A stretch of 64,000 nt of DNA, taken from the NCBI GenBank assembly GCA_051294375.1, contig CM119271.1:8980120-9044119 (forward strand), in the 5' to 3' direction. Below are positions 40,899 through 42,551 of the stretch, one piece after another. A program made the translations under genes and the position numbers. The number at the start of each line of letters is the position of its first letter. The stretch's first letter is position 1. Origin of the DNA: Paraspadella gotoi. Its lineage: Eukaryota > Animalia > Chaetognatha. The notes beneath the pieces were generated by a model that saw only the letters and a list, made by a program, of their open reading frames with translations, had not been told where the DNA came from and did not search any database.

Positions 40899-42551
40899 AT
40901 GGCCGGGACTTATTACTTTTCGATCGTGGGCCACAAAGACAATCCTCTCTTCGAGATCGAGTTCTTTCCGCCGACGAAATCCGCGGAACCGAAGAAGGAA
41001 GATCACCGACACCTCAACCAGTTCATCGCCCACGCCTCCCTCGATATGGTCGACGAGCAGATGTGGCTGCAGCCCAACATGTACCTCAAGGTAGAGGGAG
41101 GAGGGGTCAAATTTGAGATTTGCGCTACGAATTAGAACCGAATTAGAATTAAAAAATCAAGTTTTGATCAATTTTCTGCTTCGAAATTAGATCTATGAAA
41201 AATTTTTCCTTTTAATTAGTCGTTTTTTTTTTTTACGCCCCCTCCTATAATTCCAGTCTAACGAGATTTAAGCAATTAACGCTGGGGGCTTATTGAAGAT
41301 TTGAAAAAAGGGGGCTTTGGGAGGGAAACGTCGAACGCGTGCAAAATATGAGGGATATTAGACTCGAGTCTGAAGCGTTGTCCCTTTTATCCCTTTTTTA
41401 ATCGTTCCTCGTTTTTTTAATCCCCTTTTTATCGCTTTCCATTTTTTTTACGGAGTAAAAAAAACCATTATGGCAACAGCCGGGTTGCCTGTGATGCCCA
41501 TTGGGGATGGGGCATCTCACTGTTGGCTTTGGGCTTCCGACCCTCAGTGACGCTCCAGTCACTGGCGCGGTTACCCTAGGACGGTCTCGCTTTGCCAACG
41601 CAGAGGGAAGTCATTAAGACTGTGGATGGAACACTACGCCCTGGATGGTGTGTTCCCCCTCTGAGCAATGGATTTGGCTGACGGATGGTGGACGTGAGGC
41701 GGTGTGAATATACACCACAGGATCCCCGGGCCAAGACATCACTCAGGTTCCTCAAGCCTGAGAGGTGTCTGACAAGACTGTTACCATAGTGGAGAGAGAG
41801 AGAGAGCGCGAGTTGTGGGGGCATAGGCGTTTGTCGTAGCGTACCCCAGGGATAGGCGTTTGTCGTAGCGTACCCAAAGTCGGCAGGGCATAGGCGTTTG
41901 TCGTAGCGTACCCTGAGAAGGTTGCGTGTTCGATAGTAGGGCTCACCACTTATGGCAACAGCCGGGTTGCTGTGATGCCCATTGGGATGGGGCATCTCAC
42001 TGTTGGCTTTGGGGGCTTCCGACCCTCAGTGACGCCTCCAGTCACTGGCGCGGTTACCCTAGGACGGTCTCGCTTTGCCAACGCAGAGGGAAGTCATTAG
42101 GACTGGGATGGAACACTACGCCTGGGATGGTGTGTTCCCCCTCTGAGCCAATGGATTTGGCTGACGGTGGTGGACGTGAGGCGGTGTGAATATACCACCA
42201 CACCATCCCCTTTTTTTTAATAACCATCTTCTCGTTTGAAAATGTTTGCATTGCTTCTTTTATGACACTCTTTTTAACTCCCACGTACCCTCACTCCCCC
42301 GTCTCCAATTTCAGACCGTGGACAAGTTCAACGAATGGTACGTCTCCGCATTTGTCACGGCTGGACGCGTCCGCTTCATCATTCTCCACGACCAAAAGAA
42401 CGAGGACGGCATCAAGAACTTTTTCTCGGAAATGTATGAGACTTACGTCAAACACTCCCTCAACCCCTTCTACGAACACAACACCCCCATCAAAAGCCAG
42501 GCCTTTGAGCGGAAGGCCCAAGCGTGCGGTCGTCGTTATCTCAGTTGTTAA
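40899..42551 (+). CDS. TRAPPC2: Trafficking protein particle complex subunit 2 (sedlin), 2 exons (40899-41090, 42315-42551)
   Basis: [75 protein letters not shown]. Confidence 0.97.
41522..41599 (-). ncRNA. Twister ribozyme (type P5) in the 3' LTR of copy 1
   Basis: Same motif as 42002-42082, except the P4 C-run is two nt shorter and the P3 loop one nt shorter (possible homopolymer errors). Predicted cut between 41573 and 41572. Confidence 0.7.
41820..41913. repeat. Three ~27-bp direct repeats inside the element's internal region
   Basis: (GGC)ATAGGCGTTTGTCGTAGCGTACCC three times. Also present at about 45127-45222. Confidence 0.93.
41916..41948 (-). promoter_or_regulatory. Extended primer-binding site complementary to the 3' half of tRNA-Trp
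   Basis: The + strand reads AGAAGGTTGCGTGTTCGA-TAGTAGGGCTCACCA. The recalled eukaryotic tRNA-Trp 3' half is AGAAGGTTGCGTGTTCAAATCACGTCGGGGTCACCA. The site abuts the LTR and recurs at about 45225-45257. Confidence 0.78.
42002..42082 (-). ncRNA. Twister self-cleaving ribozyme, circularly permuted type P5, in the 5' LTR of copy 1
   Basis: Minus strand: GUUGGC AAA GCGA GA CCG UCCUAGGG UAA CCGC GC CAGUGAC UGGAGGC GUCACUG AGGG U CGG AA GC CCCC AAA GCCAAC. P5 GUUGGC/GCCAAC, P2 CGC/GCG, P3 7 bp, P4 GGG/CCC, T1 CGG/CCG, T2 GC/GC. Conserved UAA, GA and U-NNN-AA-GC loop are present. Predicted cut between 42056 and 42055. Confidence 0.8.

Follow-up and report, generated by a model that had tools for sequence, protein, structure and literature searches.

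What kind of RNA is encoded on the minus strand at positions 42002-42082 of the 64,000-nucleotide stretch of contig CM119271.1 analysed here (the window), and what is it doing inside the direct repeats of a mobile element? An earlier note, made from the sequence alone, had taken this 81-nt motif for a circularly permuted type-P5 twister. In twisters, site-specific self-cleavage leaves a 5'-OH and a 2',3'-cyclic phosphate. Read on the minus strand, 42002-42082 shows the complete type-P5 twister pattern of helices, pseudoknots and core nucleotides. The motif, a predicted self-cleaver, is present in both direct repeats of two separate insertions of a non-coding, very high-copy element. An RNA of this region would probably cleave in some way. 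The fuller reading, in which the twister would be active in both repeats and a 483-nt RNA would be released in a retrozyme-like manner, is held here to be evenly poised between true and false.

In the numbering used below nt 1 of the motif is position 42082 and nt 81 is position 42002. A scripted contact listing gave the order P5, P2', GA, T1', P1 hairpin, UAA, P2, GC, P3, P4/L4, P5', with the following parts:

42077-42082 and 42002-42007, minus strand: 5' and 3' strands of P5, 6 bp from G1-C81 to C6-G76
42074-42076 and 42008-42010, minus strand: AAA linkers
42070-42073, minus strand: P2', paired with P2 at 42050-42053 (G10-C33, C11-G32, G12-C31 and the mismatch A13.C30)
42068-42069, minus strand: G14-A15, between P2' and T1'
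42065-42067, minus strand: T1' CCG (C16-G64, C17-G63, G18-C62), all pairs Watson-Crick
42057-42064, minus strand: P1 hairpin with at most 2 pairs (U19.G26, C20-G25) and a CUAG loop
42056/42055, minus strand: predicted scissile bond U27/A28, within U27-A28-A29, with P2 next
42048-42049, minus strand: GC of T2, complementary (G34-C68, C35-G67)
42027-42047, minus strand: P3 hairpin, nt 36-42 with nt 50-56, 7 Watson-Crick bp
42023-42026, minus strand: 5' strand of P4, its 3' strand at 42011-42014 (G58-C71, G59-C70, G60-C69 and A57.C72)
42015-42022, minus strand: L4, G-U-CGG-A-A-G-C, with closing pair G60-C69 and A65 available in the loop

The permuted order proposed in the earlier note agrees with the Rfam Twister-P5 consensus (P2'-GA-T1'-P1 hairpin-UAA-P2-GC-P4/L4). 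Fourteen unpaired or tertiary core letters (GA, UAA, GC, GU, AAGCC) are identical between this consensus and the motif, and the UAA agrees with the RF03160 consensus as well. Six pairs are changed on both sides and are still Watson-Crick (three in P2, one in P4 and two in T1), and two pairs, one in P2 and one in P4, become A.C. A conserved core combined with compensated helices is the signature of a structured RNA of the twister class. Two finer points of the same note hold as well. The minimal P1 of about 2 bp is reflected in a gap between T1' and AA of 9 nt, compared with 17-34 nt in 33 distinct natural twisters of P5 order, and the mismatch at the first P2 position appears in the pair listing as A13.C30. 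Beyond the closing pair G60-C69, P4 has only two further pairs (the class form has about three), followed by A57.C72.

In known twisters catalysis involves the guanine that follows P2', with the next A pairing to an A of L4, and the adenine on the 3' side of the cleaved bond. The fold of T1, T2 and L4/P4 builds the active site, with no essential role being assigned to P1 in the review that describes these features (PMC5408937). By analogy, G14 would be the active-site guanine and A28 the adenine 3' of the scissile phosphate. Because all these twister parts are present, cleavage is predicted between U27 and A28. The view that P1 is largely dispensable agrees with the near wild-type cleavage without P1 in vitro reported in that review.

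The T1 triplets CGG/CCG had been described as unlike the CCC/GGG and CCU/AGG of the rice and env22 twisters and yet complementary, and three Watson-Crick pairs are indeed listed for them. A scan of viral contigs with T1 left unconstrained, using a pattern with fixed P2 and P4 letters, yielded at least 141 twister cores, and the counts given here apply to the 141 cores among the matches listed. Their loop triplets are of 13 kinds (CAC 70, GAC 18, UCC 17, UAC 10, UGC 8, CCC 7 and others). The T1 partner after GA is complementary in 134 cores and non-complementary in three, and no partner was found in the remaining four. Since complementarity is kept in 134 of the 141 cores across 13 triplets, it is the pairing of T1 that is maintained, its identity being free. 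Kept complementarity is therefore a sound part of the earlier argument, and the special standing given to a triplet other than CCC is not. The atypical feature is an orientation. At the third T1 pair, which adjoins the A.A contact, 138 of the 141 cores have C on the loop side and none has G; in the motif this pair is G-C (G64-C16), as opposed to C-G.

The specificity of the pattern was examined with a descriptor built from general twister features and not from 42002-42082, in which no T1 sequence was fixed. It requires L4 GUNNNAAGCC with two more P4 pairs and AA-4-nt P2-GC located 0-61 nt upstream. In addition, P2' with at least three of four pairs, then GA and a Watson-Crick T1', must follow downstream (P1 order) or lie upstream (P5 order). 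In the window the descriptor matches only 42012-42073 and an identical copy at 44835-44896. Random 64-kb windows, generated as first-order Markov sequences with the dinucleotide statistics of the window and searched on both strands, gave two matches in 736, i.e., about 0.003 per window. When viral-contig loci were anchored on the canonical loop 14-mer, 58 of 127 were full twisters by the descriptor. In the negative control, anchored on a composed CGG-loop 14-mer, this was the case for 1 of 121 loci, a weak example with two T1 wobble pairs. The flush 7-bp P3 and the 6-bp P5 are outside the descriptor and, by our own estimate rather than by simulation, cut the chance odds by several further orders of magnitude. 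The earlier argument against a chance match is borne out by these counts and by the kept T1 complementarity.

The expectation that standard models score the motif poorly was also correct. Over the whole window no Rfam match reaches its gathering score and no twister match is obtained at E up to 10, and there is no hammerhead match at E up to 10 in either 41700-42400 or the whole window. In a 701-nt search the only related match is a local one to twister-P1 (RF03160) with 15.2 bits and E = 4. A targeted search of 66 nt in the 3'-truncated mode aligned model positions 1-51 in register with 22.4 bits and E = 0.0033, a value valid only for that very small, post-hoc search. The alignment spans the 3' two-thirds of the motif: the P1 5' strand, UAA, P2, GCC, P3, G, P4 and L4. 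As the RNA is circularly permuted, the remaining third of the P1 model (P2', GA, T1' and the P1 3' strand) lies upstream. A match to RF02684 (Twister-P5, clan CL00120) is not listed, and one scoring below RF03160 would be hidden by clan competition. The gathering scores are 37.6 bits for RF02684 and 67.2 bits for RF03160. Nine natural type-P5 twisters from viral contigs reach 46.3-68 bits against RF02684. Two viral-contig twisters of P1 order that satisfy the full descriptor (L002 and L041) both remain below the gathering score (0/2); ordinary phage twisters are therefore also lost at the curated RF03160 cut-off of 67.2 bits.

The structural points of the earlier note stand, while it missed that the window contains five copies of the motif and that these are located in the direct repeats of a high-copy element. 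The elements were found by a blast search of 41468-42202 against the 64-kb window:

41468-42202, minus strand: el1, 735 bp; repeat B 41950-42202 (upstream), spacer 41714-41949, repeat A 41468-41713 (downstream)
44773-45512, minus strand: el2, the same repeat-spacer-repeat layout, with 95.7% identity to el1 over 743 aligned bases
13861-14444, minus strand: el3, a solo repeat, 5'-shortened and split at 14024-14354 by an unrelated insertion of ~330 bp
41714-41949, minus strand: spacer of el1, 236 bp, with three 28-nt direct repeats (41819-41913) and a CT/GA microsatellite
42002-42082, minus strand: ribozyme copy of the upstream repeat B of el1, intact, 81 nt
41522-41599, minus strand: ribozyme copy of the downstream repeat A of el1, lacking 1 nt of the P3 loop and 2 nt of a C run, the latter loss reducing P4 to 2 bp
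44825-44905, minus strand: ribozyme copy of el2 repeat A, 81/81 identical to 42002-42082, a descriptor match
45312-45392, minus strand: ribozyme copy of el2 repeat B; C11>G breaks a P2 pair, C52>U gives a G.U in P3 and G76>A breaks the closing pair of P5
13914-13994, minus strand: ribozyme copy of el3; U43>A falls in the P3 loop, and the middle pair of T1 is lost through G63>U

Two of the five ribozyme copies are identical and intact, and three carry private damage. The copy in repeat A of el1 (70/81 nt aligned by blast, with one gap) fails the descriptor, and its predicted scissile bond is 41573/41572. In each direct repeat of ~250 bp the ribozyme is located 120 nt inside the 5' end. The repeats end in TG...TA. 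On the plus strand el1 is flanked on both sides by (A)CCAT (41464-41468 and 42202-42206), corresponding to a duplication of 4-5 bp; the flanks of el2 agree at three of four positions and those of el3 are ambiguous. Similar T-rich CCCCTTTTT..AAT repeats occur in the el1 flanks at 41385-41448 and 42206-42237. The element seems to have inserted into low-complexity repetitive sequence, and its target-site duplication is harder to read for that reason.

No conserved reading frame was found in el1 and el2, which are accordingly regarded as non-coding. A 139-amino-acid open reading frame (ORF) of el1 (41576-41995, minus strand) was considered as a coding candidate and rejected, having no Pfam match and being broken in el2; a 2-nt +GC indel at 41851 also breaks it in about half of the family depth. 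A TGG-initiated stretch, TGGTGAGCCC... at 41939-41948 on the minus strand, begins 2 nt after the upstream repeat, at the position of the tRNA primer-binding site in a long terminal repeat (LTR) element. By eye this stretch does not parse as a canonical tRNA 3' end, and ARAGORN found no tRNA in the whole window with which it could be compared. A tRNA-derived short interspersed element or a tRNA primer site is, for the same reason, not supported. The element has no clear polypurine tract. The fold of the whole repeat has z = -2.57. A long hairpin (42083-42147) lies directly 5' of the ribozyme on the minus strand and is part of every repeat; on the plus strand it has a weak, chance-level Rfam match to mir-1994 (17.5 bits, E = 1.2). 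Two more hairpins are located 3' of the ribozyme at about 41955-42000. The 28-nt units of the spacer (41819-41913 in el1 and 45126-45222 in el2) have 93-100% mutual identity and are kept between the two elements; they could be protein-binding hairpins.

The family was also followed in sequencing runs, taken as assembled contigs, in which repeats A and B collapse; no run with the element is recorded as RNA. The element is very abundant in the runs of organism A, with 2738 contigs in run X1, 5517 contigs in run X3 (a DNA run) and 542 contigs in run X9. A single organism B contig and a biofilm metagenome carry it too. Run X13 contained only two fragments, neither spanning the ribozyme, and runs X14 and X15 had no element contig. 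At 41467/41469 and at 42202 many contigs pass over into AT-rich sequences that are unrelated to each other, and this fixes the ends of the family at 41468 and 42202. At a share of at least 4% in X3, three of the 81 ribozyme positions are variable: 42036 and 42040, both in the P3 loop, and 42011. The change at 42011 (G>A, that is C72>U) accounts for ~4% of the family depth and converts the A57.C72 mismatch into an A-U pair. The 120 nt upstream of the ribozyme have 10 variable sites and three indel sites in the same run. If about 15-18 of the 81 positions were free to vary, all three variants would fall into loop or mismatch-repair positions in ~1 case in 100, which is suggestive, the comparison being post hoc. 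The contigs cannot show a circle, since a circle junction reads like an uncut genomic ribozyme. With the two repeats merged in assembly, neither their joints nor their depth, including the higher summed depth over the ribozyme, can distinguish the genomic layout from a circle or a tandem.

The layout suggests the following life cycle. A read-through transcript of the minus strand containing both repeats of el1 would be cut twice, giving a 483-nt RNA extending from 42055 to 41573; the equivalent RNA of el2 would have 487 nt. Such an RNA would have a 5'-OH and a 2',3'-cyclic phosphate at its ends. The two half-ribozymes at these ends could re-pair through P5, P2 and T1, and this geometry would favour ligation into a circle, in agreement with the descriptions of hammerhead retrozymes (PMC4918200, PMC7229834). 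The circle might be closed by a host RNA ligase or by the ribozyme acting in reverse. A reverse transcriptase provided in trans could then turn either the circle or the linear RNA back into DNA, a step proposed for hammerhead retrozymes.

A further extension concerns the mini-P1, which is a palindrome, CCUAGG. Two ribozymes that share a precursor, or that belong to separate RNAs, could join their P1 strands as an 8-bp shared helix and so form a 'double twister'. The two-repeat precursor would then be cleaved efficiently, with cleavage of the monomeric circle being damped. The same logic underlies the double hammerheads known from avocado sunblotch viroid and from amphibian retrozymes. That the element represents the first genome-encoded animal 'twister retrozyme', with the hammerhead-retrozyme lifestyle served by a different ribozyme class and with the joining of P1 to P1 included, is a doubtful proposition.

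Several observations weigh against cleavage followed by release of the 483-nt RNA. Some of them concern the fold. The end of P2 nearest to the active site is the A13.C30 mismatch, where the Rfam P5 consensus has A-U. No mismatch at this position occurs in the natural twisters parsed, for which the parsers demanded 3/4 or 4/4 P2 pairs. P2 with its mismatch, P4 with 3 bp and P1 with 2 bp are all weaker than the twister norm. The nested twister fold has an energy of -21.4 kcal/mol and the pseudoknot-free minimum free energy (MFE) fold has -31.5 kcal/mol, the twister fold thus being 10 kcal/mol higher. Pseudoknot-free folding did not recover the twister fold, and P5 is absent from the MFE fold of the 253-nt repeat. 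Nor is the 483-nt RNA unusually stable (z = -1.41). By score, the motif lies below the gathering thresholds of RF02684 and RF03160 and outside the membership of both families so defined. Other observations concern the genomic copies. Individual copies decay, three of the five in the window failing the descriptor, and the 3/81 variable sites of the ribozyme are not significantly below the 10/120 upstream. Family-specific pattern scans of metagenome contigs gave 0 loci; with these scans and the sequencing runs yielding no relatives beyond a single organism group, the family offers no deep covariation of its own. The fixed ends of the genomic copies are located ~120 nt upstream of the ribozyme and not at the cleavage site, which means that cleavage does not define the ends of the element. 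The proposed cycle also does not account for the return from a cleaved or circular RNA to repeat-spacer-repeat DNA.

Much of this is what would be expected of a twister-derived relic, inactive or very slow owing to the A.C near the active site, the 3-bp P4 and the 2-bp P1, in an element that spreads without cleavage. The two mismatches are fixed in the family consensus, and the Rfam scores, the energy gap to the MFE fold, the offset of the element ends and the density of variable sites point in the same direction. Such a relic is nevertheless somewhat unlikely. All catalytic and tertiary core letters are intact, and T1 and T2 are perfectly complementary in the consensus behind thousands of contigs. 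The only common variants sit in the P3 loop or repair a mismatch. The six pairs compensated relative to the Rfam P5 consensus indicate selection for the fold at least until the founder of the family, and a short P1 would be tolerable given its dispensability in vitro (PMC5408937).

An active twister might also serve the element without any circle. It would then trim or terminate the transcript of the element, release it from host read-through or act in RNA-level control, comparable to the 5' processing by the twister variants of Perere-3 or by the hepatitis delta virus-like ribozyme of R2. Perere-3, a retrotransposon of the RTE clade in Schistosoma mansoni, has 5'-end twister variants that cleave in vitro and in reporters (PMC8501958), and truncated twisters are described as conserved at the 5' end of RTE retrotransposons in a review (PMC7761336). 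The solo repeat el3 with its single ribozyme would suit this role as well. Against it, Perere-3 is cleaved right next to the target-site duplication and has an open P1, whereas here P1 is closed and P5 is open. The ribozyme is preceded by 120 nt of element sequence in every copy, and cleavage would therefore deprive a linear RNA of its 5' part. Moreover, two elements have the ribozyme in both repeats. Trimming without a circle therefore appears improbable.

A chance look-alike in structured transposon RNA, unrelated to twisters, could be argued from the motif having been found by eye in 64 kb and having no significant genome-scale Rfam match, but this is extremely improbable and can be treated as excluded, given the two descriptor matches in 736 random windows even before P3 and P5 are counted, the difference between control and canonical-loop loci, and the 51 positions of the twister-P1 model aligned in register.

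The candidate twister of the direct repeats thus invites comparison with several known systems. With type-P5 twisters (RF02684) it has in common the element order, the open ends beyond P2' and P4, the core letters and the complementary T1 and T2. In contrast to the 7-bp P3 of the motif, natural twisters of P5 order have 4-6 nt at the place of P3 in 31 of 33 cases, and their context is that of phages or bacteria, not of an animal-like eukaryote. The P3/P4 half of the motif resembles eukaryotic type-P1 twisters. The 2839 bases covered of one IMG/VR viral contig (L288) contain six type-P5 twisters in one orientation at a spacing of 421-593 bp. The stretches between them are mutually unrelated and all P1 hairpins are different; T1 is CAC/GUG except in one copy, where it is UGC/GCA. 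This contig is a ribozyme array separating short cassettes.

The Perere-3 T-variants are, like the motif, borne by a retroelement. In both, GC leads directly into a P3 hairpin whose first letter is C and whose last letters are ACUG, and P4 and an L4 of the form GU-NNN-AAGC come next (PMC8501958). In Perere-3 the cleavage site is the 5' boundary of the element, the P1 5' strand being provided by the target-site duplication. The motif analysed here is internal, duplicated in both repeats, closed at P1 by a mini-hairpin and open at P5, unlike the Perere-3 ribozymes, which are open at P1. The T1 of Perere-3 is CCC/GGG (with one UCC) as compared with CGG/CCG here. Liu et al. (2021) listed 2060 variants (PMC8501958); their search fixed canonical domains, and the motif is therefore unlikely to be among them. 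The engineered 'mini-twister' of Kosutic et al. (2015), which lacks P1, shows almost wild-type cleavage according to the review cited above (PMC5408937). It is a laboratory construct cleaving off a single nucleotide, while the RNA of the element has a natural 2-bp P1 hairpin and continues through P5.

Plant LTR retrozymes have hammerheads in repeats of 300-400 bp, a non-coding centre of 300-600 bp and 4-bp duplications (Cervera et al. 2016, PMC4918200). Their type III hammerheads are carried in both terminal repeats of non-coding elements shorter than 1 kb, and solo repeats occur; the same is true of the elements in the window. The 4-bp flanking duplication compares with 4-5 bp at el1. The RNA between the cleavage sites is the proposed circular intermediate of plant retrozymes, as is proposed here. 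The differences are that a twister replaces the hammerhead and that the repeats of 250 bp and the centre of 236 bp are shorter. Furthermore, plant retrozymes have repeat ends of the TG...CA type together with a primer-binding site and a polypurine tract, whereas the repeats here end in TG...TA and neither of these two sites is established. Metazoan non-LTR retrozymes with type I hammerheads (Cervera & de la Pena 2020, PMC7229834) likewise are animal, non-coding repeats of a few hundred bp with a high copy number, for which unit-length circular RNAs were proposed. They form tandem arrays, from dimers up to 62-mers, without terminal repeats, as opposed to the repeat-spacer-repeat layout, fixed ends and twister of the present family.

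For twister-bearing viroid-like circular RNAs of metatranscriptomes, 930 asymmetric (one-polarity) clusters were reported by Lee et al. (bioRxiv 10.1101/2022.07.19.500677). These circles measure a few hundred nt and were recognised in RNA data by means of twister-P1 profiles. The motif described here differs in being encoded in a nuclear genome, of the P5 type and invisible to the profiles. The literature searched yielded no report of a twister lying within direct repeats of a genomic retroelement.

If the proposed life cycle is true, the curated covariance models miss whole twister lineages in animal genomes, here one with thousands of contigs, and both eukaryotic twisters and ribozyme-borne circular RNAs are currently undercounted. 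The retrozyme layout would then extend from hammerheads to a second ribozyme class, arguing for convergent recruitment of any fast self-cleaver to the same life cycle. Some of the 'asymmetric' circular RNAs with twisters in metatranscriptomes would also gain a source in DNA. The mini-P1, the inverted T1 pair and the A.C beside the active site are natural tests of the tolerance of the twister fold.

The insertion splitting el3 (14024-14354) has CCACAG on both flanks and contains three copies of a GC-rich motif of ~20 nt (GGCGGTAAGAC...CCGCCGGGGGC-like); it is probably another small mobile element. Among 29 ORFs of the window scanned, 13 have Pfam support, and all 13 are on the plus strand. The ribozymes of el1, el2 and el3 are on the minus strand, opposite to the genes, and three insertions are too few for a test of this orientation. 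Assembly gaps (N runs) are located at 6479-6503 and 17423-17613. The window has the look of a gene-dense animal genome, the domains including PDZ, ankyrin/FERM, SH3, synaptobrevin, DnaJ and PWI. The protein-atlas neighbours are all eukaryotic, with arthropods, chordates, rotifers and nematodes being the commonest.

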